IMG/VR virus record: IMGVR_UViG_3300045988_168118
Origin: a virus
Strand: one strand, 5' to 3'
Length of the DNA: 64,000 bases
In this document: positions 1,101-14,994 of the stretch, piece after piece
Numbering within the stretch: the first letter of the stretch is position 1
Layout of the letters: every line of letters begins with the position of its first letter
Made by a program: the position numbers and the translations under genes
The notes under the pieces: model-generated
Database searches by the model: none
What the model was told of the DNA's origin: nothing
What the model saw: the letters and a program-made list of their open reading frames with translations, nothing else

Positions 1101-1290
1101 TAGGCAAAATAAACAAAATAAAAAATTTTTTGAGCCTTATTTTTGTTACATTTTCACAAAATTATAGACTGGGACTCTTTGTGCAACAATACCAAAATTA
1201 TAAAAATTTTTTGGCTATTTTTGTAATTTATGTGCATTGACTTTTTTGTTCTCTGGTATTTTTAAATAAAAAACATCCCTCCAGCAGCGG

Positions 1291-1328
1291 ATTTTTTGTG
1301 CAAAAAGTAGAAAAAAAATGCACAAAAA
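1291..1328. repeat. Inverted repeat TTTGTGCA-N20-TGCACAAA, operator-like.
   Basis: ttttttgtgcaaaaagtagaaaaaaaatgcacaaaaaagg. Half-sites recur throughout the islands at 890-1340, 4020-4660 and 7680-7930. Confidence 0.5.
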
Positions 1329-1339
1329 AGGAGGACGGA

Positions 1340-1375
1340 TTTTGTGTAATCCGCCCTCTTGACAAGGTTTATAAG
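1340..1375 (-). terminator. Weak hairpin (cggatt-ttgtgt-aatccg) then U-rich tract on the minus strand, downstream of gene 1389..1802.
   Basis: Minus strand reads cggattacacaaaatccg tcctcctttttt. Confidence 0.3.
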
Positions 1376-1388
1376 TTACTTTTTAGTT

Positions 1389-1802
1389 TTACTCTTCTTT
1401 CTCAGTTTCTTCTTCTTTTGCAAGAGAAAAGTAAGGAACTCTTTTTTCAACTGTCCTGACCACTTTGCCGGCTTCAATCATTTTTTTCAACAGTGCAGAC
1501 AACTTCTGAGAAGAAAGCTTACTCATTTCGGCGTTCTCTTTAATCATTGTAGTTACCGTGACAGGTTTACCAAACAGCTCTAAGGCAATTCCAATAAGTT
1601 CCATAAGCTCCTCATTTTCTTTAATGTGAGCTGTTTTCTTTTTGCCTGGTGCTGAAGATTTCTTATTTAACAGTTCAATCTCGTGATTGATAAAGTCAAG
1701 TGTTTCTGTTTTCTTGTCAAAATCTTCTGTTTTTTCTACGATACCTGCCAGCAGTTTAAAAAAGTCTTTTTTTGTCATTTTGTTTGTGTTTGTCATAATC
1801 AA
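1389..1802 (-). CDS. Early hypothetical protein, 137 aa, possible C-terminal winged-helix region. Paralog of the gene at the window start.
   Basis: ORF with AAAAGGGGAA RBS. Promoter at 1919-1947. A GC-rich leader hairpin gatggtc/gaccatc sits at 1855-1877. Confidence 0.5.
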   Translation of the reverse strand: MIMTNTNKMTKKDFFKLLAGIVEKTEDFDKKTETLDFINHEIELLNKKSSAPGKKKTAHIKENEELMELIGIALELFGKPVTVTTMIKENAEMSKLSSQKLSALLKKMIEAGKVVRTVEKRVPYFSLAKEEETEKEE

Positions 1803-1918
1803 ATTCCCCTTTTCTTTCTTTTAAAATTTTTTTGGTGGCTTGCGGTCGGTGGTCGATGGTCGATTTTGCTGACCATCCGAACCGCTGAAAATATTTTATT
1901 TATTGATTTGCTACAATG

Positions 1919-1947
1919 TTATTATACTACTTTTCTTTGCTATTGTC
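1919..1947 (-). promoter_or_regulatory. Sigma-70-type promoter (TTGACA-17-TATAAT).
   Basis: Reverse complement reads ttgacaatagcaaagaaaagtagtataat. Confidence 0.55.
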
Positions 1948-1957
1948 AAGCATTTTT

Positions 1958-2332
1958 TTATTTTTTCTTTTGTGGTCTATGTTTGATTAACGAAATTGAA
2001 TATTCCGCACCGCCAATTTTGAAAGTAATTTCTTTTTGCGGATTTGCGATTGTCACACTTTCAAAGTTCATTTCCTCAACTTCTTTCAAGTGACTTGCCA
2101 AAATTTCAATGATTTTGACTTTTTCCGCGTCCAATTTTACCTCACGTTTTTTCGTGCTTTTTTTCTCTGGTGTACTCTGAACATAGTTCTTAATGCCTTT
2201 AGCCTTAATTTCCATTTCCGCCATTTCAAGAGCTTCCTCTTTAGTTACCGGTTCTCCATCCGCTTCAAATTCTTTCATCAACTTAATAGCAAGCTTTTCG
2301 ATTGCATCTGCGGTCACTGTTGTTTTAGCCAT
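1958..2332 (-). CDS. Early hypothetical protein, 124 aa, Lys/Glu-rich.
   Basis: ORF. The 63-nt promoter-leader cassette lies upstream at 2358-2419. Confidence 0.5.
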   Translation of the reverse strand: MAKTTVTADAIEKLAIKLMKEFEADGEPVTKEEALEMAEMEIKAKGIKNYVQSTPEKKSTKKREVKLDAEKVKIIEILASHLKEVEEMNFESVTIANPQKEITFKIGGAEYSISLIKHRPQKKK

Positions 2333-2380
2333 GTTATATCACATCCTTTTTAAAATTTACTATTAACTTGTTACAATGGT

Positions 2381-2409
2381 ATTATATCGCATCTTAGCTT
2401 AAAAGTCAA
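2381..2409 (-). promoter_or_regulatory. Sigma-70-type promoter (TTGACT-17-TATAAT), copy 1 of a 63-nt exactly duplicated cassette (2358-2419 = 3149-3210).
   Basis: Placed by the 791-nt offset from the identical copy at 3172-3200. The conserved leader contains the palindrome TTGTAACAA. Confidence 0.55.
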
Positions 2410-3116
2410 GCACTTTCGTGTAATTCTTTTCTTTTTTTCTGCGGCAGTCTCCAACATGACGGCTTAATACTTCTATCCATTTTTTTATGCTGGTCAAAAC
2501 ATTTTTTCATAATTTCAATTTCAATTTTTACATCTTCTAAGCCTGTATGAGATTCTACAAAATCAATATTCTTTTTAATATATTTATAGCATACCTCAGC
2601 GTTAGTTAAAAGATTGCCTTTTTCAGACTCAAATCCGTTTTTCTCAGCAAATTTGATATAGGTGTTTGTACTTAAAATCATCTGACAAGCCATGTTCCAA
2701 ATACAAAAATATTCTGTACCATAAGGGAAAAACCAGCGAATAAAACTTTTGCTATGGTATCTAATAGCATTGTTTAATGCTTTTCTATCAAAATTCATAT
2801 TGTAAGCACCAACTTTTTTCACATTATATTCTCTCATGTCTGCAAACATCTGTTTTCTAATATTGAAAATGCTTTTCATGGTTCTTTTTCCGCTTTTTAA
2901 ATCATCCCAGTATTTCGGAATTTTTTCAGCGTAGTAGGCACTATTCATAGCTTCTTTCAAGTCAATAAATGTCTCAGCGACTACAAAGCTTCTTTCGGTG
3001 ACAATGTTACCGTGTCTATCTGCAATAGCATAGCCAATATCATAAGGGATTGGTTCATTTACACTATTCGCAGTTTCTGTATCCAATACCATGAAAAACT
3101 CTTTTCTTCTACTCAT
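2406..3116 (-). CDS. DEDDh-family 3'-5' exonuclease (DnaQ/epsilon, oligoribonuclease-like).
   Basis: Exo I motif VLDTETAN, Exo II GAYNMNFDRKAL and Exo III HTGLEDV are all present. The likely true start is ATG at 3116 (MSRRKEFF), 9 nt after GAGGA. The track start at 3131 is a TTG. Confidence 0.6.
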   Translation of the reverse strand: MSRRKEFFMVLDTETANSVNEPIPYDIGYAIADRHGNIVTERSFVVAETFIDLKEAMNSAYYAEKIPKYWDDLKSGKRTMKSIFNIRKQMFADMREYNVKKVGAYNMNFDRKALNNAIRYHSKSFIRWFFPYGTEYFCIWNMACQMILSTNTYIKFAEKNGFESEKGNLLTNAEVCYKYIKKNIDFVESHTGLEDVKIEIEIMKKCFDQHKKMDRSIKPSCWRLPQKKRKELHESA

Positions 3117-3171
3117 TTTTGATTTCCTCAACTTTCATTTATTTTTTTTACTATTAACTTGTTACAATGGT

Positions 3172-3200
3172 ATTATATCGCATCTTAGCTTAAAAGTCAA
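3172..3200 (-). promoter_or_regulatory. Sigma-70-type promoter, copy 2 of the 63-nt duplicated cassette.
   Basis: Reverse complement reads cttgacttttaagctaagatgcgatataat. Identical to the copy upstream of 1958..2332. Confidence 0.55.
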
Positions 3201-3210
3201 GCACTTTCGT

Positions 3211-3390
3211 TTATTTTTTAAAATCTTTTAACTGTTGGTTCGTAGACAACTCTTTAATTTTATATTTATGCAACCTATTGTTTAAACAATGAGTGCATGA
3301 ACCATGATTTCTGCATGACATTGACTTTGCTTTTGCTCTGCGGTATTCTTTTCTATGTTCTTTACCACTTCTGATTGCTTTATCCATCAT
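3211..3390 (-). CDS. Small basic Cys/His-rich protein, 59 aa (MMDKAIRSGKEHRKEYRRAKAKSMSCRNHGSCTHCLNNRLHKYKIKELSTNQQLKDFKK), possibly zinc-binding. Not in the ORF track because it is under 60 aa.
   Basis: Read manually from the minus strand. AGGTGA lies 8 nt upstream of ATG at 3390 and the stop TAA is at 3213-3211. Confidence 0.35.
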   Translation of the reverse strand: MMDKAIRSGKEHRKEYRRAKAKSMSCRNHGSCTHCLNNRLHKYKIKELSTNQQLKDFKK

Positions 3391-3407
3391 ATTCTATCAC
3401 CTACTTT

Positions 3408-3881
3408 CTATAAAAAATTTTTTAAGATTTCCATAATATTATTTACATCAAAAGCACCTTTTCCCCACTCGATTCGATTTTTTTCTTCATCATCAAAAAG
3501 CCACCCCTTGCAATCAACGACAGTACTTTTTGGTGTACCATAGTTTACAATTTTGATTTCATCCCATTTAATACTAGGTAAGTGTTTTTCAAGCCATGCA
3601 AGTTTTACACTTGTTACCGCCGTATTATAAGAAGCTGACCCGCTTTTACTTAACCAGCTTACAATACCAATTCTATAGCCATTAGCTTGTAACTTGTGAA
3701 GCACTCTTGCGAAAACTGAAAAATTAAAAAGTGGTTTTGCTACTTTGTATGGTGTAGTGTCTTCTTTTTCCAAATATGCTAACCAGTTTTCCACGCCGTA
3801 GAAGTTAGCAAGTGTGCCGTCCATGTCAAAATAAATAGTTCCCTTTGTGCTCATCATTTCTTTAATTGTATTATCCATCAT
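3408..3881 (-). CDS. HAD-superfamily 5'(3')-deoxyribonucleotidase-like protein (NT5C family).
   Basis: HAD motif I in YFDMDGTLANF, as in the cytosolic deoxyribonucleotidase VDMDGVLADF. The track start at 3893 is a TTG. The real start is probably the ATG-ATG at 3881/3878. Confidence 0.55.
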   Translation of the reverse strand: MMDNTIKEMMSTKGTIYFDMDGTLANFYGVENWLAYLEKEDTTPYKVAKPLFNFSVFARVLHKLQANGYRIGIVSWLSKSGSASYNTAVTSVKLAWLEKHLPSIKWDEIKIVNYGTPKSTVVDCKGWLFDDEEKNRIEWGKGAFDVNNIMEILKNFL

Positions 3882-3993
3882 AATAATTATCAATCCTTTC
3901 TTTTTTGATTATCGCAAGTGCCTTGCGACCGACCGCTCATTATGTAAGCTTTGCTTTATTTCTGATTTAAGTTTAATGTCCTTTGACAAGTAT

Positions 3994-4022
3994 ATATTAC
4001 TACATCTTAGCGAAAAAGTCAA
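3994..4022 (-). promoter_or_regulatory. Probable promoter (TTGACT-17-TAATAT) for 3408..3881, with leader hairpin cgcaag-gca-cttgcg at about 3925-3945.
   Basis: Reverse complement reads ttgactttttcgctaagatgtagtaatat. Confidence 0.4.
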
Positions 4023-4319
4023 ATTTATTTTTTATTGTGCAAAAGTGATGAAATTTTATATAAAAATCATAGTATTTTTGTCAAAATATACAAATGTAGA
4101 AAAATAATGCGGATTTAGGCGGATTCTTGTGCATTTTGCTACCTTAAATATCACATATTGTGTTTCTGCGTGTCAAAAAAGGTATGATTTTTTATTAAAA
4201 TTTCGTCACTTTGCACAAGGTGTAGAAAATTTTGGTATTATTTTATTAAATTTTGTGCATTTTGTATACCATGTCAAAAAATGGGATTTTTTTAATTTAT
4301 TTTTTGTGCAAATTGCCTA

Positions 4320-4348
4320 TTGACAAAAAGGTGCTAGATGTGGTATAA
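4320..4348 (+). promoter_or_regulatory. Plus-strand consensus promoter, left half of unit B.
   Basis: gcctattgaca-aaaaggtgctagatgtgg-tataat: -35 at 4320-4325, -10 at 4343-4348, extended TGg. Preceded by ttttgtgcaaattgcctattgaca. Confidence 0.55.
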
Positions 4349-4394
4349 TAAAATTTCGGGGTGCCCCGACCCCGAACGGACTTTGCCCTCTTTC

Positions 4395-4423
4395 ATTATA
4401 ACATACTCGAGCCACCTTGTCAA
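4395..4423 (-). promoter_or_regulatory. Minus-strand consensus promoter, right half of unit B.
   Basis: Reverse complement reads ttgacaaggtggctcgagtatgttataat (TGtTATAAT). It is followed on the minus strand by gaaagaggg and then the hairpin at 4353-4375 (ttcgggg..ccccgaa). Confidence 0.5.
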
Positions 4424-4501
4424 GAGTTTTTTTCAAAAAAAATGCACAAATTTTGGGATAAAAATTTTGAAAAATTTGTGCATTTTTTCTCTTGACAAAA
4501 T

Positions 4502-4530
4502 GTCTCAACTATGTTATAATGGAAGGCTCG
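4502..4530 (+). promoter_or_regulatory. Plus-strand consensus promoter, left half of unit C.
   Basis: ttgacaaaatgtctcaactatgttataat. Its upstream 25 nt are identical to unit A. Confidence 0.55.
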
Positions 4531-4568
4531 GCTCGCATTGACTGCTCGCGAGCCGGCTATTATAACAC

Positions 4569-4597
4569 ATTTTCCGCGACTTGTCAACCCCTTTTTA
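4569..4597 (-). promoter_or_regulatory. Minus-strand consensus promoter, right half of unit C.
   Basis: Reverse complement reads ttgacaagtcgcggaaaatgtgttataat. The hairpin ggctcgc-attgactgctc-gcgagcc (4533-4566) abuts both -10 elements. Confidence 0.5.
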
Positions 4598-4663
4598 AAA
4601 AATTTTTTATTTTCGTCATTTTGCACAAAAATAAAATTCAGCATTTTGCACAAAAAACAAAAG

Positions 4664-4700
4664 TCTAATTTACTTAGACTTTTGTTATAAAAATTTTTTC
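4664..4700. terminator. Bidirectional rho-independent terminator (caaaagtcta-atttact-tagacttttg with U-runs on both strands).
   Basis: 10-bp stem. It ends the plus-strand transcript from the unit C promoter, roughly 190 nt with no ATG, and the minus-strand gene 4751..4903. Confidence 0.55.
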
Positions 4701-4750
4701 TGCTTATGACTAGTTATTTTCATTATTTATTATTAAATTCACGTGATTTC

Positions 4751-4903
4751 TTATTTTTTTCGTTTCATTATTGCTTCATAAGCAATTTTTACTATTTCTT
4801 TTGAAATGTTTTGATTCTCTGCTATTTTACAGAATATAATTACTGTGTCATTTTCAAATCCTTTTACTTGAATCATTTTATCCATCATCTCTGTCCTTGT
4901 CAT
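4751..4903 (-). CDS. Small early protein, 50 aa (MTRTEMMDKMIQVKGFENDTVIIFCKIAENQNISKEIVKIAYEAIMKRKK). Not in the ORF track.
   Basis: Consensus promoter 4926-4954 and RBS AGAGAGG upstream of ATG at 4903. Confidence 0.35.
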   Translation of the reverse strand: MTRTEMMDKMIQVKGFENDTVIIFCKIAENQNISKEIVKIAYEAIMKRKK

Positions 4904-4925
4904 TATTGTTTTCCTCTCTTTCTTT

Positions 4926-4954
4926 AACTGTCTTTATTATATCACAAGAAGCTG
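4926..4954 (-). promoter_or_regulatory. Sigma-70-type promoter with conserved AAAGAGAGG leader.
   Basis: Reverse complement reads ttgacaaaatcagcttcttgtgatataat. Confidence 0.55.
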
Positions 4955-4971
4955 ATTTTGTCAACCCCTTT

Positions 4972-5205
4972 TTATAAAATTCCTTCAATTTTACAACATC
5001 TTCTGCAAGCATTAATACAATCATTCCATGCGTCATCATCATTTGCGTACTGCGTCAAGATTCTCTCATCCCACCCATCTTCTAACCCACAAGTAAACCA
5101 AACGTCAATGACAATGTCTTCGCTAATATTTTCTCTGATAAAAACATCCATCTGTCTAAGAAGATTCTTTCTAATTCTAACTATCTCTTTTCTTGATACG
5201 CTCAT
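4972..5205 (-). CDS. Early Cys-rich small protein, 77 aa (MSVSRKEIVRIRKNLLRQMDVFIRENISEDIV...CINACRRCCKIEGIL). Paralog of 5222..5509.
   Basis: The start is reassigned to ATG at 5205, after promoter 5236-5264 and RBS AGAGAGG. The track extends it upstream to 5346 through the promoter. Confidence 0.5.
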   Translation of the reverse strand: MSVSRKEIVRIRKNLLRQMDVFIRENISEDIVIDVWFTCGLEDGWDERILTQYANDDDAWNDCINACRRCCKIEGIL

Positions 5206-5221
5206 TTTATTTACCTCTCTT

Positions 5222-5509
5222 TCATTTGATACATTTATTATACCATATTTCCGACTTTTTGTCAACCCCTTTTTTAAAAAAATCAATTCCTTCAATTTCA
5301 AAACATTTGCGATAAGCGTTAATACAATTACACCAAGAATCATCATCGCTTACACACTTTGTTAGAATATCATCATTCCATCCATCTTTAAACAGGGGAA
5401 GCCAAACATTAGTTATTACGTCTTCACTAATGTATTTTCTGATGAATGAATTCATTCGTCTGAGATAATACTTTTTAATTTCAATTATTTCATCTCTTGA
5501 AAACTCCAT
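5222..5509 (-). CDS. Early Cys-rich small protein, 95 aa. Paralog of 4972..5205. Its C-terminus reads through the next promoter.
   Basis: ISEDVITNVWLPLFKDGWNDDILTKCVSDDDSWCNCINAYRKCFEIEG aligns with ISEDIVIDVWFTCGLEDGWDERILTQYANDDDAWNDCINACRRCCKIEG. Promoter 5537-5565. Confidence 0.5.
   Translation of the reverse strand: MEFSRDEIIEIKKYYLRRMNSFIRKYISEDVITNVWLPLFKDGWNDDILTKCVSDDDSWCNCINAYRKCFEIEGIDFFKKGVDKKSEIWYNKCIK
5236..5264 (-). promoter_or_regulatory. Sigma-70-type promoter followed by the ATCAAATGAAAGAGAGG leader.
   Basis: Reverse complement reads ttgacaaaaagtcggaaatatggtataat. Confidence 0.55.
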
Positions 5510-5536
5510 TTTTCCTCTCTTTCATTTGATATATTT

Positions 5537-5565
5537 ATTATACTATAGGTCTTGACTTTTGTCAA
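5537..5565 (-). promoter_or_regulatory. Sigma-70-type promoter whose -35 lies in a perfect palindrome ggtcttgac-tttt-gtcaagacc (5546-5567).
   Basis: Reverse complement reads ttgacaaaagtcaagacctatagtataat, followed by the atcaaatgaaagagagg leader. Confidence 0.55.
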
Positions 5566-5584
5566 GACCTATTTTAAATTAGTT

Positions 5585-5746
5585 TTAAAGAAGTTTTTGA
5601 AGTTTGCCGTCAGCATCAAATTGAAAGCCAATGTTTTCACCATAAGAAGAAAGCTCAGCTTCAAAATAATCCTTTTCCTCATAGCAAATCTCTATGTCGG
5701 CTTTTTTAAAAATCTGTAATAAAATTTCTTTATCTGTTTTTTTCAT
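5585..5746 (-). CDS. Small early protein, 53 aa (MKKTDKEILLQIFKKADIEICYEEKDYFEAELSSYGENIGFQFDADGKLQKLL). Not in the ORF track.
   Basis: Promoter 5783-5811 (TTGACA-17-TATACT) and RBS AAGAGG before ATG at 5746. Confidence 0.3.
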   Translation of the reverse strand: MKKTDKEILLQIFKKADIEICYEEKDYFEAELSSYGENIGFQFDADGKLQKLL

Positions 5747-5782
5747 TTTTATCAACCTCTTTCTCTTTCATTTGATATATTA

Positions 5783-5811
5783 AGTATAGCAGATATTTTT
5801 TATTTTGTCAA
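5783..5811 (-). promoter_or_regulatory. Sigma-70-type promoter (TTGACA-17-TATACT) with ATCAAATGAAAGAGAAAGAGG leader.
   Basis: Reverse complement of 5783-5811. Confidence 0.45.
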
Positions 5812-5873
5812 GCCTTTTTTAAAAAAAGGAAGATTTTTTATCTTCCTTTTTTCCCCATAACTCCATCTTGTTT

Positions 5874-6035
5874 TTATCTCAGTAATCTTAATAAATAGTT
5901 ATTTTCATGCTCTTTCAAAAAAGCGTTAATTTCTTCTATTGTTTCAGCGTAAATCTCGCCTGTCTCAGTGTCTACCAACATCAATTTTTTACTTCCTAAA
6001 AATAATCCTAAATCTAACATATTTAAGCCCTCCAT
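5874..6035 (-). CDS. Tiny ORF, about 53 aa (MEGLNMLDLGLFLGSKKLMLVDTETGEIYAETIEEINAFLKEHENNYLLRLLR), translationally coupled to the ORF upstream of it.
   Basis: TAATG stop/start overlap at 6033-6037. An internal ATG at 6020 is preceded by GGAGGG. Confidence 0.25.
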   Translation of the reverse strand: MEGLNMLDLGLFLGSKKLMLVDTETGEIYAETIEEINAFLKEHENNYLLRLLR

Positions 6036-6154
6036 TAAGAAATTTTTACCAGATAACCGTTTGTATTTTTTTCTACTGAAAAAATGTATTGATTATCTTT
6101 TAAGTATTTTTTTACAGTTTCAAATGCTTTTCGAGTTGTCAGTAACATTGTCAT
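6035..6154 (-). CDS. Tiny ORF, 39 aa (MTMLLTTRKAFETVKKYLKDNQYIFSVEKNTNGYLVKIS).
   Basis: Promoter 6187-6215 (TTGACA-17-TATCAT) and RBS GAGAGG before ATG at 6154. Confidence 0.25.
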   Translation of the reverse strand: MTMLLTTRKAFETVKKYLKDNQYIFSVEKNTNGYLVKIS

Positions 6155-6186
6155 ATTTCTTTACCTCTCTTTCATTTGATAATACT

Positions 6187-6215
6187 ATGATACTATATTT
6201 CCTTGCTTTTGTCAA
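6187..6215 (-). promoter_or_regulatory. Sigma-70-type promoter with ATCAAATGAAAGAGAGG leader.
   Basis: Reverse complement reads ttgacaaaagcaaggaaatatagtatcat. Confidence 0.45.
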
Positions 6216-6264
6216 GCATTTTAGGAAAATTTCTAAAGATTTTTTTATGCGGATTTCCACTGAA

Positions 6265-6330
6265 AAAACCTGAACTTAAGGAGATTGTAGGTGAACCGAC
6301 TCCAAAACTGTCAAGTTCGGGAGTCCCTTT
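6265..6330. terminator. Compound Y-shaped hairpin (cctgaactt...aagttcggg enclosing ggag/ctcc) with U-runs on both strands. Bidirectional terminator or insulator between early transcription units.
   Basis: 9-bp outer stem with one G-U pair, then gggagtcccttttttattt on the plus strand and ttttttcag on the minus strand. Confidence 0.4.
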
Positions 6331-6600
6331 TTTATTTAAGGAATGATTCTAAAGCCTTATAGCATAAATCAGCGTTTTCTTTATCTTTTATGCTAGTACC
6401 TTTAGAAAAGTCATTCATAGCGGCTGTTAGTAATTCCGGCACTGAAATAAATTCAAATACCAGTTGTAAAGCCGCCAATTCATTAAGATTGACTTTTTTT
6501 CATCGGTTCTTTCCTATCTCCTTTTTAAATATTTTATTTTCTTTACATTATTATTATATCAAATTTTTTAATAAAATTCAAAAAAGATACTTTATCTAAA

Positions 6601-6640
6601 TAAGCAAAGAAAAGGGCTGAACCTATTCCGCCCTTTTCCC
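6601..6640. terminator. Rho-independent terminator for the minus-strand gene 6650..6913 (agggc-N12-gccct, U-runs on both sides).
   Basis: Minus strand reads agggcggaataggttcagccct tttctttgcttattt. Confidence 0.45.
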
Positions 6641-6649
6641 GCTTTTCCG

Positions 6650-6913
6650 CTATCCTATTATCTCTGCATCTGTAATAATATCATCTGTCACACTATCAGT
6701 CCCTAAAGAATCCATGTATAATTTAACTTTATCTCTTGCTTTAAAACCGTCCCCGTAGAAACTCCATACATGCCCGTAGCTATCCATAACAACCACTTCA
6801 TTATTAAAAGAGCTAATCACTTTAGCTTCTCTTGTATACTTAGTAAAGCTACCAAAACCGCAAATACTACTTAAAGTTGCACTTACTATTAATCCTAAAA
6901 TCACCTTTTTCAT
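6650..6913 (-). CDS. Small secreted or lipoprotein-like early protein, 87 aa from MKKVILGLIVSATLSSICG.
   Basis: N-terminal signal-peptide-like hydrophobic stretch ending in Cys. The start is reassigned to ATG at 6913, because the track start is a TTG. Probably co-transcribed with 6919..7197. Confidence 0.45.
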   Translation of the reverse strand: MKKVILGLIVSATLSSICGFGSFTKYTREAKVISSFNNEVVVMDSYGHVWSFYGDGFKARDKVKLYMDSLGTDSVTDDIITDAEIIG

Positions 6914-6918
6914 TATGT

Positions 6919-7197
6919 CTAACTCCAACCTCTTTCTTTCTTAATCTTTTCGTATCTTCTTTTTTCTTCTTCTTCAATCTTCTTTTTGTCGTATACTCTA
7001 ACTTTCATTCTAGTATATCCGTCTCTTTTTAAACACCAACGTTCTGTTTTACGTTGTATTACTATCTTGTCGATAGCCCTTTGCTGTACCTCTTGCTTAT
7101 GAGTGTTATAATATTTGATACTCTCAATTTCTAATAAAGTACTTATTGGTCTGTACTTATTTGTTACACTAAACAAAGTGCATTGAATTGTTATCAT
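6919..7197 (-). CDS. Early hypothetical basic protein, 92 aa, with KKKIEEEEKRRYEKIKKERGW C-terminus.
   Basis: ORF with RBS AAAGAGAGGTGA. Promoter 7223-7251. Confidence 0.45.
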   Translation of the reverse strand: MITIQCTLFSVTNKYRPISTLLEIESIKYYNTHKQEVQQRAIDKIVIQRKTERWCLKRDGYTRMKVRVYDKKKIEEEEKRRYEKIKKERGWS

Positions 7198-7222
7198 CTT
7201 ATCACCTCTCTTTTCAAGTATT

Positions 7223-7251
7223 ATTATACTACCTTATTATACCATTGTCAA
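7223..7251 (-). promoter_or_regulatory. Sigma-70-type promoter (TTGACA-17-TATAAT).
   Basis: Reverse complement reads ttgacaatggtataataaggtagtataat. Confidence 0.5.
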
Positions 7252-7262
7252 GCTTTATTTAC

Positions 7263-7640
7263 AGTATTTTTATTTATTTTAATGCATATTTACTCATGTT
7301 ATTAAGATTAATAGTTAGTTTTAAATATATATATTTATATCTTTTTTATAAATAGTAAAATAAAATATAATATAAATATTATCATACTATTTTATTTAGT
7401 ATTATTTTATAAGCTTATTATTATTATTATTATACTATCTTATTATAATTATTATAAGATATTACAGTACCAATGTTAACATTATTATCATTATATTTCT
7501 TCTTTATATATAGTTATAATTGATAAGATTAACAATAATATAAGATAATGTTATTGTTAATTATATTTATGTATTGTATTGTTATAATATTGTATTATTA
7601 TTATTATTATTATTATCTTTCTTTTGTCTTAAGCTTAACC
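7263..7640. repeat. A/T-only tract of about 380 bp and roughly 10% GC, with (ATT)n/(TTA)n microsatellites at 7417-7434 and 7596-7618 and short TATA/ATAAT repeats. No ORF.
   Basis: Seen directly. Stop codons are frequent in all frames. Confidence 0.7.
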
Positions 7641-7679
7641 TCTCATTATAGCACCTTTAGCTCATTCTGTCAATAGACA

Positions 7680-7935
7680 TTTTACACAATTTTTCCTTTA
7701 AAACTTTGTGCAGATTGCCTATTGACATTTTTTGTCTATTGACATTTTACACAAAAATGAGAATATATTTTTGTACACTTTTACTATTGACAGGGTTTGT
7801 CAATAGACATAATGCACAAAATTTTCCACGTATTTTTGTACAATTTTACCTATTGACAAGTTCATTTTAGGAAAATATCTTTGTGCATTTTTTACAAAAA
7901 TTTAGCCAAAAATTTGTGCATTTTGCCTATTGACA
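7680..7935. promoter_or_regulatory. Cluster of at least 6 copies of the 9-10-mer (C/T)CTATTGACA(G/A) in both orientations, interleaved with TTGTGCA/TGCACAA half-sites. Includes the palindrome ctattgacagggtttgtcaatag. Iteron-like or operator array.
   Basis: Copies at about 7727, 7745, 7786, 7800 (reverse), 7850 and 7922. Most lack a good -10 at 17 nt, so they are unlikely all to be promoters. The triple composite tttgtgcaNNttgcctattgaca occurs at 4300, 7717 and 7910. Confidence 0.5.
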
Positions 7936-8451
7936 GGCTTCTCGGAGCGTTGCGAAAGTGTACGCTCCGACGATAGATGGCAAGCTACCAATAGCCAATA
8001 AAAATTCTAATCTTCTTGCTTTATTTTAGTTATTTAAAGAATTTATTTTATTAGTTTAACTCTTTCTCCTCTTTGCTTAAAATAATGTGTTCAAAACTCT
8101 TCTGAACAAAAAGCATATCCTCTTTGGAAAATGATTTGAAAAATTATTTGTTAGGCGGTGTCTTGTTGCTTCTTGCTCAAAAGAGATGCTCAAACTACAG
8201 ACCATACTTAAACATAATGCCGGGGTATATTAAAGGATTAAAATTTTTTACTTTTATAAAAAGATAGTGTTCTCCACAATTCTCTCTCCAAAAATTTTTT
8301 CAAATCTAAAAGTCTAAAAATAAAATCAAAAAACGAGAATTAAAAATCTCTCCAAAAAATTTTTTTAAACAAATTAAAATAAAATAAAATAAAGAGGATT
8401 TTAAAAAAATAAAAATATTTCTCATTTTCTCTTTAAAAACTACCCGCGATA

Positions 8452-9204
8452 TCAAACAAGGCTCCGAAAAGCGTCTAAATTAGATCCATTAGGGATAGCA
8501 AAAATTATTTTTTTAAAAATATAATTATTAGATAATTTCATAAATATCTTTTTAACTTCATTAGGATCTTGACCAAAAGCTCCGCATCCAAAAGCTCCTA
8601 AGATTAGAACATCAATTTTATTTTTCGCCGCAATGTCTAAAATAAAAGAGATTCTTTCTTTTAAAGCCTTAGTATTTTCTTCATCTGTTATCCCATTACG
8701 CTTAGCTTCTTTTTTATTCGGGGCTGCACAAGTAATAATATCACAATTATAAAAATCTTCAAAAAGAATGTTTGGACTATAAATCGCTCTATTCCAATAC
8801 AAACCGCGATTTATTAAGTTTTTATTTTCTCCATAAAAATCTTCTCTTTGCCGCCACAAAATATTATAAAGAATAGACTTATGACATAAGCTTCCTTCTT
8901 GAGTACTACTTCCTTTTAAAAAGCCTCCGCCAGGATATTTAAAAGATGCAAAATTAAGTGCGGCAATCTTACTATCAGGAAATTCAGATACAGCTTTTTT
9001 AATAGCATTAACAGTATCAGTTTCCCATATTTCATAATTAAGATTTTTTTCATTTATTTTCTTCATTTTATTTGCAATAGAACCTGGCACAAAACCACTA
9101 TAATATTTAGTTCTTGCGTTACACCATGCGATTTTATCTGAATATTCTTTTTCCATTTTATAAAAATGATTTATGGCTTGAATAGCTCTTTCTTTTTTAT
9201 TCAT
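8452..9204 (-). CDS. Bacterial-type poly(ADP-ribose) glycohydrolase / macrodomain hydrolase (DUF2263, TIGR02452 family).
   Basis: PARG signature NFASFKYPGGGFLKGSSTQEGSLCHKSILY (GGG-X7-QE) plus the diphosphate loop GAFGCGAFGQDP. It closely mirrors the NFANPxxPGGGFLxGAxAQEExLCRxSxLY and GAWGCGVFGN motifs of bacterial PARGs. The second catalytic Glu is replaced, giving QEG rather than QEE. Confidence 0.65.
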   Translation of the reverse strand: MNKKERAIQAINHFYKMEKEYSDKIAWCNARTKYYSGFVPGSIANKMKKINEKNLNYEIWETDTVNAIKKAVSEFPDSKIAALNFASFKYPGGGFLKGSSTQEGSLCHKSILYNILWRQREDFYGENKNLINRGLYWNRAIYSPNILFEDFYNCDIITCAAPNKKEAKRNGITDEENTKALKERISFILDIAAKNKIDVLILGAFGCGAFGQDPNEVKKIFMKLSNNYIFKKIIFAIPNGSNLDAFRSLV

Positions 9205-9224
9205 CTATTAACATCCTCGTTTTA

Positions 9225-9413
9225 TTAGAACATCGCATTTGCTTGTTCATAATATTTTAATTCTTGAATCCAAGCGATTGGAATTACCATTTCCGCTTTA
9301 GCATATCTTTCTATAGCATCCATAATCTCATTTCTTCTACTATTAATTACTTCTAATCTAAAAGCTTCACGCGGAACCAAACCTGCAACTGTCTTTTTTG
9401 CTTCATTATTCAT
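9225..9413 (-). CDS. Hypothetical protein, 62 aa.
   Basis: ORF packed tightly between the PARG-like and DUF2493 genes, with 2-nt and 20-nt gaps. Confidence 0.4.
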   Translation of the reverse strand: MNNEAKKTVAGLVPREAFRLEVINSRRNEIMDAIERYAKAEMVIPIAWIQELKYYEQANAMF

Positions 9414-9414
9414 A

Positions 9415-9762
9415 TTATTTTCCTCCTATTTTAATTACTTTACCATGCTTTCCATTCATTTTCATTTTCATAATAATTTTTCTAATTATTGCATCTTTTC
9501 CGTCATAAAAAAATATACCAAAATCAATATTTTCTACCATTTTCTGAATTAATTTATCTATGTTGCGATCAAATACATATTCAATAGGAGCACCATTATT
9601 TTCTGCCCATATTTTTCCAATAGACTCCGAGAGCTTCTTCTCCGTATTCCCGCAAACAACAGTAAATAAATAACATTGCGTTTCGCGGATAAAATCTTCC
9701 ATAGTTGCGGAGACTAGGCGATTATCTGCGAAACCGCGACTTCCAAGAATACTAATTTTCAT
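9415..9762 (-). CDS. DUF2493 / SLOG-superfamily (DprA/LOG-like Rossmann) protein.
   Basis: ILGSRGF...VVCGNTEKKLSESIGKIWAENNGAPIEYVF...FFYDGKDAIIRKIIMKMKMNGKHGKVIKI matches the DUF2493 pattern vtGsRdf...vhGgarGaD...waae.gvp.e.f...fwdGkSrGTkhmielakk.gkpv.vi. RBS AAGAGGAAAAAG. Confidence 0.5.
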   Translation of the reverse strand: MKISILGSRGFADNRLVSATMEDFIRETQCYLFTVVCGNTEKKLSESIGKIWAENNGAPIEYVFDRNIDKLIQKMVENIDFGIFFYDGKDAIIRKIIMKMKMNGKHGKVIKIGGK

Positions 9763-9843
9763 TTCTTTTTCCTCTTGTTTTATTTATAAAATAATTATAA
9801 CAAAAATTTTTTAAAAAATCCAATTAAAGTGCTTTAATCAAAT

Positions 9844-9872
9844 TTGACAAAAAAATTTTTTTGTGGTATAAT
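9844..9872 (+). promoter_or_regulatory. Consensus promoter (TTGACA-17-TGgTATAAT) for the plus-strand morphogenesis block. It diverges from the minus-strand promoter of the SLOG-PARG operon, TGtTATAAT at about 9795-9803.
   Basis: tttgacaaaaaaatttttttgtggtataat, 27 nt upstream of RBS AAGGAG and the ATG at 9900. Confidence 0.6.
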
Positions 9873-9899
9873 ATAATTGTAAACTAGAAAGGAGAAATT

Positions 9900-11063
9900 A
9901 TGACACCAATAACATTAGAAGATAAGGCTTTTGAGGAGAATAATGTTTTAGAAGAAGAAAAAAAAATAACAGAAAAACAAATCGAAGAAGAAAATATGCA
10001 AACTACTATTAAACTAGATTATTCTTTAGAAACTCCTGAAGAGCGGAATGAATTAGTTAAAAAAATTATAGATAAGACTCCTTCTGAGCAATTAACACCT
10101 AAATATTTAGAAATATTATCAGATTACATTATTTTTGCTATGGATAAACAAGAGCGGAAACAGAAGCAAATATTAACTGATAATCATATGGTCACAGTTA
10201 ATAAAAGAGAAACTTCTTTTGAAGGATTAGTTGGTCGCTTAGAGAATGGCGAAGATGGCATTTATAATATGATCGCCAATGATAAGAATATTATTTTTAC
10301 ACCTAAATTTCAAATAACTCAACAGGATATTGCGGAAATCCCTGAGTTAAAGCAACTTGTAGACGCGATTGCGGAAGTCGAAAAAGCTGAGAAAAAAGCA
10401 GTTGGTAAAAAGAAATTTTTATTAAAAAAGCAACTTATTGCTATGAGACAAGATCAATATGTAATTAGAAGTGCATACAAGCCGCCAATTTATTGTATGA
10501 ACGCAATTAAAAGTTTTAGCAAAATTGATTTTGATGAAAATGTTTCTATTAGCGGAAATGATGAAATTGAAGATAATAGCTTAGTTTCTTTTTTTAATCC
10601 TAAGCACATATCTGCATTATTATGTAACTATTCCCGCCTAAAAGAAGATGCATGGGGAAAATTCTACAGTGATTCATATTTTTTAATGGAGGATTTAGAT
10701 ACATTAATAGAGAAGACTCTAAGAGATAGTTATCCAATGTATTATGACCTCTTGATTTATAAAATAGACGGAAAACAAAATCTTGAAATTCAGAGTCTGT
10801 TGAATCAAAAACACAATGTAAAACATTCAGTGGAATATATATCATCTTTATGGCGGAATAAAATACCTAAGCTATTGTCAGAGCAAGCTCAGGAAGACTA
10901 TTTAATTTGGTATTACACAACTCAGAAAAAAGGAAAATGGAAAAAATGTTCCCGTTGTGGGGAAATCAAATTAGCTCATAATAAATTTTTTTCAAAGAAT
11001 AAGACAAGTAAAGATCATTTTTACAGTATATGTAAATGTTGTCGAAATAAGAAAAATAAATAA
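9900..11063 (+). CDS. Hypothetical protein, 387 aa, with C-terminal C4 zinc ribbon (CSRCGEIK...CKCC).
   Basis: ORF with RBS AGGAG. First gene of the late block. No family recognised. Confidence 0.55.
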   Translation: MTPITLEDKAFEENNVLEEEKKITEKQIEEENMQTTIKLDYSLETPEERNELVKKIIDKTPSEQLTPKYLEILSDYIIFAMDKQERKQKQILTDNHMVTVNKRETSFEGLVGRLENGEDGIYNMIANDKNIIFTPKFQITQQDIAEIPELKQLVDAIAEVEKAEKKAVGKKKFLLKKQLIAMRQDQYVIRSAYKPPIYCMNAIKSFSKIDFDENVSISGNDEIEDNSLVSFFNPKHISALLCNYSRLKEDAWGKFYSDSYFLMEDLDTLIEKTLRDSYPMYYDLLIYKIDGKQNLEIQSLLNQKHNVKHSVEYISSLWRNKIPKLLSEQAQEDYLIWYYTTQKKGKWKKCSRCGEIKLAHNKFFSKNKTSKDHFYSICKCCRNKKNK

Positions 11064-11075
11064 AGGAGGCTAATA

Positions 11076-12275
11076 ATGAATTATACTTGCAACAAATGCG
11101 GAAAGTCAATGGATGAAATAAATTTTTATACATATAAAAATGGTAAAAAAACAGAATTATGTAAAAAATGTTTAACTATGCATATAAATAATTTTGAACC
11201 TAATACTTTCCTATGGGCATTAGAAAAGATGGATGTTCCATATGTTCCAGAAGAATGGAATATTTTAAGGGATAAAGCCTATGCAAAAGACCCTTATAAA
11301 ATGAATGGGATGTCAGTATTTGGAAAATATCTTTCTAAAATGCGGCTAAAGCAGTGGAAAGATTATAGTTGGGCAGATACAGAAAAGATTGCTCAAGAAA
11401 AAGAAGAAAAGACTCAAAAGGATCTTGAACAACAGAAAAAGTTTGAAGAAAGTATGAAGCAACAGCTTGAAAAAGGTGAAATTTCTGAAGCTGAATACAA
11501 AACGATGGTTTCTACCCCCACTCAAAACGCGGAATTGGCGGTAAAAGCTCCTAAGAATGAGATTGGAACTGACAATTTTTATGATGAAAATAATTTTATA
11601 AGCGAGGATGAATTAATTGATCCCGCCGCGGAATTAACTCAAGAAGATAAGATTTACTTAGCTATGAAATGGGGACGTTTGTATAAACCAAATGAATGGG
11701 TTGAACTAGAGAAAAAATATGAAGAGATGACTAGTTCTTTTGATATTCAAGACTCAGATACTACAGGAACTTTAATTCTTATTTGTAAAACTTATTTAAA
11801 GATGAATCAGGCGATCGATTGCGGTGACATGGATGGCTATCAGAAGTTATCCAGAGTATATGATTCATTACGTAAATCTGCGAAATTCACAGCCGCACAA
11901 AATAAAGAAGTAAAAAGTGATTTTGTAGATTGTATTGGAGAGATGGTTGCCTATTGTGAAAAAAATGGCGGTCAGATTCCAAGGATGAAAATAGATGCAC
12001 CAAATGATATAGTTGATAAAGTTATCATGGATTTAAAAGAGTATACAAGATCATTAATCTATGATGATAAGTCTCTTGCTCAACAGATAGAAAATTATAT
12101 TAAGCAGAGAGAAAATGCTGATGCAATGAAGAAAGATAGAGAAGAAGCTAAAGAAAAAGGCTATAATCAGATAGAAATAAAAGATAGAGATTATCAAGCT
12201 TATTTTGAAAATATTGCAAAAGAAAAAGAAGAAGATGAAAAAATTTATATAGGAGAGGATGAAGACTTTATATGA
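11076..12275 (+). CDS. Putative terminase small subunit, 399 aa, with N-terminal CxxC...CxxC zinc ribbon, coiled-coil and acidic C-terminus.
   Basis: Sits immediately upstream of TerL with an ATGA start/stop overlap at 12272-12275. The function is inferred from position only. Confidence 0.35.
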   Translation: MNYTCNKCGKSMDEINFYTYKNGKKTELCKKCLTMHINNFEPNTFLWALEKMDVPYVPEEWNILRDKAYAKDPYKMNGMSVFGKYLSKMRLKQWKDYSWADTEKIAQEKEEKTQKDLEQQKKFEESMKQQLEKGEISEAEYKTMVSTPTQNAELAVKAPKNEIGTDNFYDENNFISEDELIDPAAELTQEDKIYLAMKWGRLYKPNEWVELEKKYEEMTSSFDIQDSDTTGTLILICKTYLKMNQAIDCGDMDGYQKLSRVYDSLRKSAKFTAAQNKEVKSDFVDCIGEMVAYCEKNGGQIPRMKIDAPNDIVDKVIMDLKEYTRSLIYDDKSLAQQIENYIKQRENADAMKKDREEAKEKGYNQIEIKDRDYQAYFENIAKEKEEDEKIYIGEDEDFI

Positions 12276-12607
12276 GTTTAAAAGGTCTATTAGATTTATC
12301 TGAATCTAGAACCCTTAAGAAACAGGGCATGTCAGAAGAAAGACTAAAAGCTCAACTTCCTCATTTAAGAAATCTAATCGCTTATTATAGAGAATATCCA
12401 GACCTTTTGGTAGACTTTATGAAAGGTCCTGAGAGTACTTTTAAATTCTTTTTTTATCAGAGAATATTTTTAAGGATTACGATGCGGCATAGGTATGTGT
12501 ATGCTACTTTTCCACGTGCGTATAGTAAATCATTCTTATCTATGATGATTCTTATGTTAAGGTGTATTCTCTATCCTAATTCACATTTGTTTGTTACTAC
12601 TGGTGGT
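12272..12607 (+). CDS. terL: Terminase large subunit, exon 1 (ATPase domain with Walker A-like ATFPRAYSKSF).
   Basis: FYQRIFLRIT...ATFPRAYSKSFLSMMILM...HLFVTTGG is TerL N-terminal architecture. The open frame hits a stop 2 codons later. The proposed 5' splice site is after T12607. Confidence 0.6.
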
Positions 12608-13587
12608 AAAATATAATTATAAGTAAAGGAGGAGCATTAAAAATGAGTGCAAAAAACGTCCTAACTAATTTTAATAAAATTGATACTGAAGAAAAAGCTT
12701 ATTGGTTAGGCTTTTTATATGCGGATGGAAGTGTTGGTTCTAAAGAAGATAAAATAGAACTAGGACTAGCAAAAAAAGATTTAAAACATATAGAAAAATT
12801 TAGAGATTTTATGAATATAACTAATAAAATTAGCTATAGAGAAAGAACAAAATCTTATAGAATGAGTTTTAGGAATGCTCAATGTAAACAGGATTTAATA
12901 GATAAAGGGTGCGTTCCTAAAAAATCATTAATTCTTGATTTTCCAAATGAAAAACAAGTACCAAAACATTTAATTAGACATTTTATAAGAGGGTATTTTG
13001 ATGGCGATGGATGGTTTACAAATACAGAAAGTTGTTTTCAAATAGGTATAATCGGAACTGAAAATTTTATAAAAGGTTTTTTGAAATCTATTGAAAATAT
13101 AAATAAAGAAAATAAAATTTTCGATGTTCATAGAGAAAATGGAGCTAAAAGATATGTTTTTGGAGCTTATGAAGATGTTTTAAATTTTTTAAATTGGATT
13201 TATAAAGATTCAAGTATTTATTTGGAAAGAAAATATGCTAGTTATTTAGATTTTATCCAAAATGGAAGTAAGTATCATAAAATAAAATAAAAAATTTTTG
13301 CCGTATATTAAAGAAATTTAATATATGATTATTGCGGAATTAAGCGGGGAGGCTGAGATGCTAATCCGAACCGAAGGCTATAGGAACTATAGTCAGGGGC
13401 AACGCATAGATGGTGAAAAGATATAATCCATCCACGAGTCCGCAACACAGCATTATATAGGAATGCTTGAGACTATCTCACCAATAGTCAAACCTAACGT
13501 AAAACGAGGGTGAAAAGATATGCTAAGCTTATACGAAAAAGAAGTATAAGAACTAAAGGATAAAAAGCCTTTAGGATAATATAACTG
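12608..13587 (+). mobile_element. Group I-like self-splicing intron of about 980 nt interrupting TerL and carrying a LAGLIDADG homing-endonuclease ORF. Boundaries are inferred.
   Basis: The exon 2 frame opens at 13585 with no start codon or RBS, yet encodes conserved TerL sequence (EQAASITIAKIEEICKLIPALNNELDWSRG...SSRGQRRTGGLMEE). Joining after U12607 and G13587 restores the frame to give ...FVTTGG|KEQAASITIAK.... The 3' part of the intron (13300-13587) is non-coding. Confidence 0.55.
12643..13290 (+). CDS. LAGLIDADG homing endonuclease with two motifs, encoded within the intron.
   Basis: Motifs YWLGFLYADGSVG and IRGYFDGDGWF. Own RBS AAGGAGG. Confidence 0.8.
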   Translation: MSAKNVLTNFNKIDTEEKAYWLGFLYADGSVGSKEDKIELGLAKKDLKHIEKFRDFMNITNKISYRERTKSYRMSFRNAQCKQDLIDKGCVPKKSLILDFPNEKQVPKHLIRHFIRGYFDGDGWFTNTESCFQIGIIGTENFIKGFLKSIENINKENKIFDVHRENGAKRYVFGAYEDVLNFLNWIYKDSSIYLERKYASYLDFIQNGSKYHKIK

Positions 13588-14994
13588 AAAGAGCAGGCTG
13601 CCAGTATCACCATAGCGAAAATTGAAGAAATATGTAAGCTTATCCCCGCACTTAATAATGAGCTAGATTGGTCAAGGGGAGCTTCTAAAAAATCAAAAGA
13701 TGATGTTAATTATATCTTTAAAAATGGTTCTTCTATTGATATATTAGCCGCTAAACAATCTTCTAGAGGCCAGCGTAGAACGGGTGGTTTAATGGAAGAA
13801 TGTGTTCTTATAGATGGAGATATATTAAATGAAATAATAATTCCTACAACAAACGTTGATAGATTATTACCAGATGGAACTAGACATAAAGAAGAAATAA
13901 TTAACAAGAGTCAAATATATATTACAACAGCTGGGTGGAAGAATTCATTCGCGTATGACAAACTGACGGAACTTTTGGTTCAGTCTATGATTGAGCCTGA
14001 TAAAGTTATGGTTATGGGTGGAACGTATGAAACGCCTGTTGCGGAAGGGCTTTTAGATGAAGATTTTGTAGATCAGCTCAAATTACAAGGTACATTTAAA
14101 GAAGATTCTTTTGATAGGGAATATCGTTCTAAATGGAGCGGAGATGCAGAAAATGCATTTTATTCTTCTGAAAAGTTTGATAGGTATAGAGTGTTATCCC
14201 AACCAGAATACGAATATAGCGGAAGAAGTAGTAAATCAGCTTATTATGTTATAGGGGTAGACGTCGGACGTATAGGCTGCACAACTGAAGCTTGCATATT
14301 CAAAGTTACCCCTCAACCGCAAGGAACGGCTTTAAAAAGTTTGGTTAATATCTATACTTATGAAGCAGAACATTTTGAGACTCAAGCAATTAATTTAAAA
14401 AAATTATTTTATAAATATAAAGCTAAAATTATCTCTATTGATGCGAATGGCTTGGGTATCGGGCTCATCGACTTCATGACAAGGGCGCAGATTGACCCAG
14501 AAACAGGAGATACTCTTCCGCCATTTGGAGTTGAGGGAGGAACATCAGAGGATGCTATTGCTCCTTACAGAAAAATTAAAGGCGGAGATGTGGAAGATAA
14601 TGCTTTATATTTAATTAAAGCAAACGCACCAATTAACACTGAAGCCTATTCATACACTCAGACTCAAATGTCTAGCGGAAAAATTAAATTTTTGAAAGAT
14701 GAGTCTGAAGCTAAAGCTAAACTAATGTCATCAAAAGTTGGTCAGAATATGGATGCGGATAAAAGAAACGAATATCTAAAACCTTTTGTTTTAACAACAA
14801 TTTTAAGAGAACAAATGCTAAATCTAGTTGAAGAAAATGAAGGAGTTAATATTATTTTAAAACAATCTTCAAGAGGTATAAAGAAAGATAAATTTTCTGC
14901 TTTTATATATGGATTATATTATATAAAGCAGGAAGAAGACCATAAGAAAAAGAAACGAAGTAGAAATATATCAGATTTTATGTTCTTTAACTAA
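13588..14994 (+). CDS. terL: Terminase large subunit, exon 2 (rest of the ATPase domain plus the nuclease domain).
   Basis: Conserved SRGQRRTGGLMEECVLIDGD, ITTAGWKNSFAYDKL and a C-terminal RNase H-like region. The first in-frame ATG is only at 13792. Confidence 0.65.
   Translation, partial: KEQAASITIAKIEEICKLIPALNNELDWSRGASKKSKDDVNYIFKNGSSIDILAAKQSSRGQRRTGGLMEECVLIDGDILNEIIIPTTNVDRLLPDGTRHKEEIINKSQIYITTAGWKNSFAYDKLTELLVQSMIEPDKVMVMGGTYETPVAEGLLDEDFVDQLKLQGTFKEDSFDREYRSKWSGDAENAFYSSEKFDRYRVLSQPEYEYSGRSSKSAYYVIGVDVGRIGCTTEACIFKVTPQPQGTALKSLVNIYTYEAEHFETQAINLKKLFYKYKAKIISIDANGLGIGLIDFMTRAQIDPETGDTLPPFGVEGGTSEDAIAPYRKIKGGDVEDNALYLIKANAPINTEAYSYTQTQMSSGKIKFLKDESEAKAKLMSSKVGQNMDADKRNEYLKPFVLTTILREQMLNLVEENEGVNIILKQSSRGIKKDKFSAFIYGLYYIKQEEDHKKKKRSRNISDFMFFN

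Follow-up and report, generated by a model that had tools for sequence, protein, structure and literature searches.

We analysed a 64,000-nucleotide (nt) stretch of viral DNA from IMG/VR record IMGVR_UViG_3300045988_168118 (hereafter the window, to whose full length all coordinates refer), concentrating on three minus-strand genes. In order of transcription these are (i) gene 1 (9415..9762), which encodes a 115-amino-acid (aa) divergent YAcAr/DUF2493-like, SLOG-related protein, as judged from the open reading frame (ORF) list and homology; (ii) gene 2 (9225..9413), a 62-aa ORF from the same list that matches no family and is found only in the present phage lineage; and (iii) gene 3 (8452..9204), whose 250-aa product is assigned by TIGR02452 and PF10021 to the macrodomain proteins of the bacterial-type poly(ADP-ribose) glycohydrolase (PARG) family, and which carries what we call the QEG allele, with glycine in place of the second glutamate of the QEE catalytic loop. 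The genes are spaced by 1 nt (genes 1 and 2) and 20 nt (genes 2 and 3), and a promoter/terminator scan found no terminator-like site between the three. An extended -10 element, TGTTATAAT (9794..9802, minus strand), lies 32 nt upstream of the gene 1 ATG; its -35 is weak (TTGGAT at 9823..9818, with an 18-nt spacer), and because of this poor -35 the promoter was missed by a two-hexamer consensus scan. The genes are the promoter-proximal, operon-like unit of a leftward block and diverge from the structural block, an arrangement that a preliminary description of this DNA, made without database searches, had recognized correctly.

The same description had called the 250-aa product a PARG from two motifs, GGG-X7-QE and GAFGCGAFG. 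Both are present, and the call was borne out by profile searches with the product of 8452..9204, which matched PF10021 (PARG_cat_microb, formerly DUF2263; E 3.4e-23, 83.1 bits, cutoff 23.5) and TIGR02452 (E 1.2e-50, 172.5 bits, cutoff 50), as well as by comparison with solved PARG chains. The Deinococcus radiodurans enzyme (DrPARG) and the Thermomonospora curvata enzyme were matched at E 3e-20 and 3e-18, respectively, in a single-sequence search, and at E 6e-46 and 1.5e-37 with a family profile. An AlphaFold2 model of the protein (predicted local distance difference test score 91.5; predicted template-modelling score 0.90) was compared with the PDB using Foldseek, and the 13 best matches were all to T. 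curvata PARG (3SIG/3SIH) or D. radiodurans PARG (E 3e-17, query-normalized TM-score 0.82-0.85); generic macrodomains ranked below them, at E ~1e-8 or weaker. Along with this family match and macro-like fold, the glycine-rich diphosphate-binding loop is kept: GAFGCGAFG, residues 203-211 (8572..8598, minus strand), is intact in the alignment and pairs with GAWGCGVF of DrPARG, and none of its residues G203, A204, G206, C207, G208, and F210 varies among 121 sequences. The gene 3 product is a genuine bacterial-type PARG, whose macrodomain fold carries a helical extension at the N terminus. It shares with T. curvata PARG (3SIG) and DrPARG (5ZDA-G) the whole catalytic domain, the fold, GGG-X7-QE, G-A-F-G-C-G-x-F, and the N-terminal helices, but is only 27-30% identical to them, is phage-borne, and is encoded in a presumably early operon. 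Its closest cellular homologues, at 41-46% identity, come from gut Bacillota, which suggests that group as the source of the phage gene.

The most consequential difference from these enzymes is in the catalytic loop. Residues 92-104 (8893..8931, minus strand), contained in PGGGFLKGSSTQEG (residues 91-104), read GGG-X7-QEG, and the family signature GGG-X6-8-QEE, with both glutamates, is broken at the second Glu, where the codon is GGA (8895..8893). In a pairwise alignment, Q102-E103-G104 pairs with Q-E-E of DrPARG, so that G104 occupies the position of E112 in DrPARG and E115 in T. curvata PARG. When the protein was aligned with 120 homologues, column 104 held Glu in 119 of the 121 sequences and Gly only in the query and one homologue (P0005), and every other conserved position was intact in the window allele. 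QEE was likewise found in 82 of 86 PARG ORFs scanned, the remainder being three QEG forms (the window, the related locus L005, and L041) and one ORF truncated before the motif. Among 80 cellular PARG loci, only two variants of QEE were noted: QEQ in a metagenome-assembled genome (MAG) of Atopobiaceae (L123) and QKE in a Clostridia MAG (L163). The third viral QEG form, L041 (4974-5756), is an intact ORF with a TQEG loop, 44% identical to the window protein and located on an unrelated phage contig of 217,629 nt. By alignment, the QEG protein is a member of the family by descent that is without the residue needed for the family's activity.

That requirement comes from mutants of homologous enzymes. 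The primer used to make DrPARG E112A encodes A-Q-E-A-D-L-C, turning QEE into QEA (PMC6445106), and E112 is therefore the second Glu of the motif. Hydrolysis of poly(ADP-ribose) by this mutant was undetectable, while its dissociation constant (Kd) for ADP-ribose was 2.02 uM, against 1.78 uM for the wild type (PMC6445106). In T. curvata PARG, the consecutive residues E114 and E115 are given as key residues of the motif (PMC8120803), and the PDB contains an E115A mutant structure (3SIJ), which was among our Foldseek matches. For the bacterial PARGs SCO0909 and DRB0099, de-ADP-ribosylation of the RNA 2'-OH is lost upon mutation of the main catalytic glutamate (PMC11833690). As the catalytic Glu is absent and the homologue mutants are inactive yet still bind, the QEG form is predicted to lose glycohydrolase activity and to keep ADP-ribose binding; it is effectively a natural E112A/E115A, whose product probably binds ADP-ribose and no longer cuts. 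The window copy is unsuitable as an exemplar of the enzyme, because it is probably not an active hydrolase.

The substitution is not shared by the nearest relatives. Sister phages that are 91-96% identical carry QEE, as do six other loci with the same 62-aa neighbor, and in a DNA alignment with L001, L005, L006, and L007 the two forms differ by one base, GAA versus GGA, at window position 8894. Judged from these alignments, the Glu-to-Gly change is recent. Sequencing error was considered as its source and rejected: the PARG gene is identical at 753 of 753 nt in L086, L088, L089, and L092, which derive from four different samples, and the exact window protein occurs on 36 contigs, more than any other listed sequence in its 106-member cluster, so QEG is a real allele.

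The preliminary description had taken QEG as a sign of altered specificity, favoring mono-ADP-ribose over chain cleavage. Such an enzyme would still be active and would cut another linkage (e.g., ester- or phosphate-linked mono-ADP-ribose) by way of E103 or through substrate-assisted catalysis. Indeed, E103 is kept together with the GGG and diphosphate loops, the TQEG loop recurs in L041, and SCO0909 also strips 5'-phosphate-linked ADP-ribose from RNA (PMC11833690). However, the change is a recent single-base one with no other remodelling of the active site relative to the QEE sisters, truncated derivatives of the QEG allele exist, and mutating the equivalent Glu inactivates DrPARG, just as catalytic-glutamate mutants of SCO0909 and DRB0099 do not act on RNA ADP-ribosylated at the 2'-OH (PMC11833690). 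What is missing is the catalytic Glu itself, as is indicated by E112A, by the near-invariance of column 104, by the QEE sisters, and by the frameshifted derivatives, and we regard altered specificity as quite improbable.

The history of the allele is mosaic. The genes flanking PARG in the window are near those of L001 (synonymous divergence, dS, 0.02-0.05) and far from those of L005 (dS 0.33-0.40). In columns 300-480 of the PARG alignment the window has seven differences from L005, which also carries QEG, versus 15 from L001, and at the gene ends this order is reversed; the QEG tract appears to have been transferred by recombination between diverged phage backbones. Several copies of the gene are damaged. 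In addition to QEG, L005 has an in-frame N-terminal duplication and a 5-bp deletion, through which the last 15 residues are lost, including the invariant P238 and the nearly invariant N242 and F246. Three further QEG members of the cluster are frameshifted (P0243, 211 aa; P0244, 173 aa; P0249, 130 aa). Damage extends to QEE copies: P0241 is cut short at 230 aa, and in L007 an A-run has lost 1 nt. Taken together, the lesions suggest that the PARG gene is dispensable in many settings.

The account that we favor, with moderate confidence in the whole, is that the unit contains a genuine phage PARG, of which one allele, circulating in a common gut phage and partly in decay, has lost catalysis. According to this account, the step from GAA to GGA would have turned the catalytic Glu of GGG-X7-QEE into Gly and left the diphosphate loop intact, and the resulting QEG product would bind ADP-ribose without hydrolyzing ribose-ribose or 2'-OH ribosyl linkages, as its mutant homologues suggest. 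The QEE sister alleles would encode an early-expressed ADP-ribosyl glycohydrolase, which, by analogy, may strip ADP-ribose put on phage or host RNA, DNA, or protein by ADP-ribosyltransferases (ARTs) of the host or of competitors. The gene would be an accessory one, dispensable in many hosts and in the course of being lost from part of the population, with QEG, QEE, and frameshifted copies coexisting.

Several points weigh against this account. The substitution tested in homologues is to Ala, never to Gly, and all of the biochemistry comes from homologues. Part of the frameshifts may be assembly errors in A-runs. Pairwise comparisons of the PARG gene, the one between the two QEG copies among them, give dN/dS of 0.10-0.18; since the allele is a recombinant mosaic and most of the divergence predates the substitution, these ratios do not show how selection has acted since then. 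No ART was found in the scanned window proteins, the neighboring small genes, or the large virion proteins, and no defense gene or target, NAD-related gene, or ADP-ribose-related partner was found near the unit. Finally, the standing of QEG as the most frequent listed sequence, together with its apparent recombinational spread, fits a selected non-catalytic or alternative function too, as does the intact TQEG ORF of the unrelated phage.

A selected function of this type could be that of a binder: QEG would shield ADP-ribosylated targets, compete with host readers, or act as a sponge for an immune signal derived from ADP-ribose, and the 115-aa and 62-aa proteins might assist. The wild-type affinity of DrPARG E112A for ADP-ribose would suit such a role, as would the prevalence of the exact sequence and its identity across samples, the apparent movement of the tract between backbones, the independent occurrence in L041, and the retention of every other conserved position. 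Yet the frameshifts or truncations in L005, P0243, P0244, and P0249 are unexpected for a selected function, an allele can also become frequent by hitch-hiking when the phage genotype that carries it is successful, binding of free ADP-ribose with a micromolar Kd is unlike that of a sponge, and in the literature searched we found no PARG acting on glycocyclic ADP-ribose (gcADPR); overall, we think a selected binder unlikely. A more specific proposal is that the QEG gene is not dying and that its dead macrodomain has been naturally selected as an ADP-ribose trap in a prevalent human-gut phage; in its favor, QEG is the majority form among the listed cluster members, appears to have recombined, and recurs independently in L041. 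The proposal strikes us as distinctly unlikely. If true, it would mean that the protein holds an immune signal derived from ADP-ribose, or else nucleic acid or protein of the phage that has been ADP-ribosylated, with no product released.

Under the favored reading of QEG as a loss-of-catalysis allele, a counter-defense role is plausible for the QEE alleles, by analogy with (i) PARGs acting against the toxin RhsP2 and (ii) phage NADAR proteins acting against DarTG1. SCO0909 and DRB0099 protect against RhsP2, an ART toxin that ADP-ribosylates the RNA 2'-OH (PMC11833690). These proteins belong to the same family as the window protein and, as the sole tested protective role of a bacterial-type PARG found in the literature searched, are the closest functional parallel to the QEE alleles of the sister phages; they differ in being cellular and in having the catalytic Glu intact, and the window locus is without a linked RhsP2-like or other ART. 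In the second case, orphan NADAR antitoxins of T4-like phages neutralize DarTG1 (PMC11825919). They exemplify the concept of a phage-encoded ADP-ribose-removing enzyme as counter-defense; unlike the window protein, they have a NADAR fold rather than a macrodomain/PARG fold, act on another substrate, and have an experimentally demonstrated role, and the window locus has no experimental or contextual link to DarT.

For the window locus itself, the preliminary description had proposed counter-defense against ADP-ribosylating or NAD-signal immunity, a proposal that receives no direct support from PADLOC, PHROG, or ART scans. The three proteins gave no match in PADLOC or PHROG, and a phage ART partner was sought among the large virion proteins and not found, the 2842-aa protein encoded in the window being a tape-measure-type tail protein. 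In the literature searched, we found neither a phage PARG in counter-defense nor an experimental study of a phage PARG, and nothing useful on TIGR02452. A physiological role for bacterial-type PARGs, protection from an RNA-ADP-ribosylating toxin, is itself recent. One prevalent gut phage population holding QEE, QEG, and frameshifted copies amounts to a natural experiment on PARG activity, and comparing QEE, QEG, and null phages would show whether the phage PARG is a counter-defense enzyme and what selects on its activity.

The 115-aa product of gene 1 had been described as a DUF2493/SLOG-fold protein. This relationship stands, at a distance. The direct match to PF10686 (YAcAr; E 4.9e-4, 20.3 bits) is under the cutoff of 28.2. 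Profile searching revealed a small family of 95 representatives, most of ~100-115 aa, and six of 62 subfamily members match YAcAr at E <= 0.01. One homologue, P0194, passes the YAcAr cutoff (52.9 bits) and is related to the window protein over its full length (residues 1-111; BLASTP, 34% identity, E 1e-17). For a structural model of the 115-aa protein, the nearest matches were YpsA, ThsA, and a LOG-like protein, all of the SLOG type; PDB sequence searches with the protein or its family profile returned chance-level matches only. Canonical SLOG proteins bind their ligand through glycine-rich motifs: GGR after strand 1, GGxxGxD, and SxGT. Compared with P0194, these are degenerate in the window protein (GSRGF for GGRDF, GNTEKKLSE for GGARGAD, and FYDGKDAII for FWDGKSKGT) and one loop is deleted, while motifs specific to the subfamily (YLFTVVCG, WA..NGAP, and GKHG) are kept. 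The protein thus resembles the YAcAr family in its homology to a bona fide member and in adjoining a macrodomain-class gene in a phage, and departs from it in its sub-threshold score and its lack of the canonical glycine motifs and one loop. It is, on these comparisons, a divergent YAcAr/DUF2493 SLOG relative in which the usual ligand-binding features are not conserved.

Two observations connect this family with DUF488-N3a. In L098 (3531-5729), a DUF488-N3a gene is located ~1 kb downstream of the SLOG-like gene, with a second, weak SLOG-like ORF immediately upstream, and P0167 is a SLOG-like/DUF488-N3a fusion. This link may tell more about the 115-aa protein than the link to PARG; a literature search on DUF488 yielded nothing useful. 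The 62-aa product of gene 2 has no Pfam, NCBIfam, PHROG, or PADLOC match. Its 17 homologues are all at least 73% identical, and 250 index blocks of the collection, human-gut metagenomes among them, hold a protein identical to it.

The pairing of PARG and SLOG genes had been put forward as a functional clue. PARG relatives were found on 232 stretches in IMG/VR, of which 80 were listed; 78 viral loci outside the present lineage (L008-L085) were examined. None of the 78 has a SLOG-like ORF within 5 kb of the PARG gene, with either the subfamily profile or the canonical P0194 as query, and the two other viral loci with SLOG-like genes, L098 and L099, are without PARG. Adjacency is confined to close relatives (L001-L007 and L086-L095), where the arrangement is kept in each member examined. 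Since only one lineage is involved, and adjacency is expected from close relatedness, the pairing gives no independent evidence of coupling. Joint action of the 115-aa and 62-aa proteins with the PARG is likewise unproven, their linkage being restricted to the present lineage. The underlying observation of the preliminary description is confirmed, and its interpretation as a whole is partly supported.

YAcAr SLOG domains are known from jumbo phages, in which 'toggles' combining SLOG with Macro, NADAR, or Nudix domains have been predicted computationally (Iyer et al. 2021, PMC7824862). As applied to the window, a toggle would consist of a YAcAr-type protein that makes or binds an NAD-derived signal and a PARG that degrades it, through which the phage would control host behavior. 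The jumbo-phage precedent and the conserved placement of both genes in one operon are consistent with this idea, but recurrence in independent lineages, as just described, is lacking for the window pair, L098 has DUF488-N3a rather than PARG near its SLOG-like gene, the SLOG protein is without canonical glycine motifs, and its PARG partner in the window allele is without the catalytic Glu. We therefore consider a toggle highly improbable at this locus. The idea of SLOG plus macrodomain in phages is not new, and the present locus adds no independent support to it.

PARG genes themselves are widespread among viruses. In IMG/VR, at least 232 contigs encode TIGR02452-type relatives, and of the 80 that were listed most lie on contigs of 70-340 kb. 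Among GenBank phages, 20 records match TIGR02452, those of Lak megaphages and Bacillus phage G included, and large gut phages commonly carry the family. The PARGs of Lak megaphages, phage G, and the large IMG/VR phages are like the window gene in being TIGR02452-type genes in phage genomes, and differ from it in that they are 38-48% identical, nearly all carry QEE, and have no SLOG neighbor. Recurrent neighbors of PARG in L008-L085 are C5 and N6/N4 DNA methylases, a CCA-adding enzyme (tRNA nucleotidyltransferase), a metallophosphoesterase, an RNase T-like exonuclease, and DUF2828/DUF7788, a set that hints at a nucleic-acid repair or modification context.

The window (28-35% G+C) belongs to an uncultured human-gut phage of ~131-141 kb, whose nearest known relatives are Phass-1 and the Enterococcus EF1-like phages. 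In a megablast search, none of 50,697 phage records matched the region at the DNA level, and a four-sequence profile of the SLOG family found no copy of the locus in 185,579 species genomes. Identity of the portal protein is 39% with its counterpart in Phass-1, a human-gut phage of 136 kb, and ~32% with the counterparts in Enterococcus EF1-like phages (134-142 kb), and near-identical contigs of 131-141 kb were recovered from many metagenomes, with one record labelled human gut metagenome. On the minus strand, a replication and nucleotide block (56249-63144) encodes a 1304-aa DNA polymerase (phrog_405), a 781-aa NrdD-like anaerobic ribonucleotide reductase, and a guanylate kinase; the anaerobic reductase is consistent with an anaerobic gut host. 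There are no tRNA genes in the window. The large subunit of the terminase is split into a 114-aa N-terminal ORF (12272-12616) and a 400-aa C-terminal ORF (13792-14994) that flank a LAGLIDADG ORF (12643-13290). In L001-L004 the terminase is a single 580-aa ORF, and only L005 has the LAGLIDADG insertion in common with the window; a mobile intron or the insertion of a homing endonuclease is the probable cause.

Outside the PARG unit, a divergent promoter on the plus strand (9844..9872) consists of TTGACA, a 17-nt spacer, and TATAAT with an upstream TG, matching the consensus at 12 of 12 positions. The plus-strand block is transcribed from this promoter and contains, in order, a sigma-factor-like gene, a YonG-like gene, the split terminase, the portal gene, and the gene for the 2842-aa tail protein. 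The first of these (9900-11063), directly behind the perfect consensus promoter, matches phrog_5767, annotated as 'sigma factor' (E 1.5e-51), and has a Cys-rich C-terminal tail; it could be a switch to late transcription. On the other side, the extended -10 motif TGNTATAAT is over-represented: the window has 21 sites where 8.0 +/- 3.2 would be expected, of which 18 fall within positions 1-9900, mostly on the minus strand amid many small ORFs. The leftward small-gene block, rich in host-type promoters, looks like a multi-promoter region and is presumably early.

Downstream of the PARG gene lies an ORF-poor gap of 1.25 kb (7198-8451), and an Rfam scan of positions 1-12000 gave no match, including at a repeat array located in that gap. 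In the array (7668-7935), a 12-nt motif, TGTCAATAGACA, or its reverse complement, TGTCTATTGACA, occurs at least seven times, in inverted pairs spaced ~65 nt apart. The motif contains TTGACA, and the array could be an operator, iteron, or promoter array.

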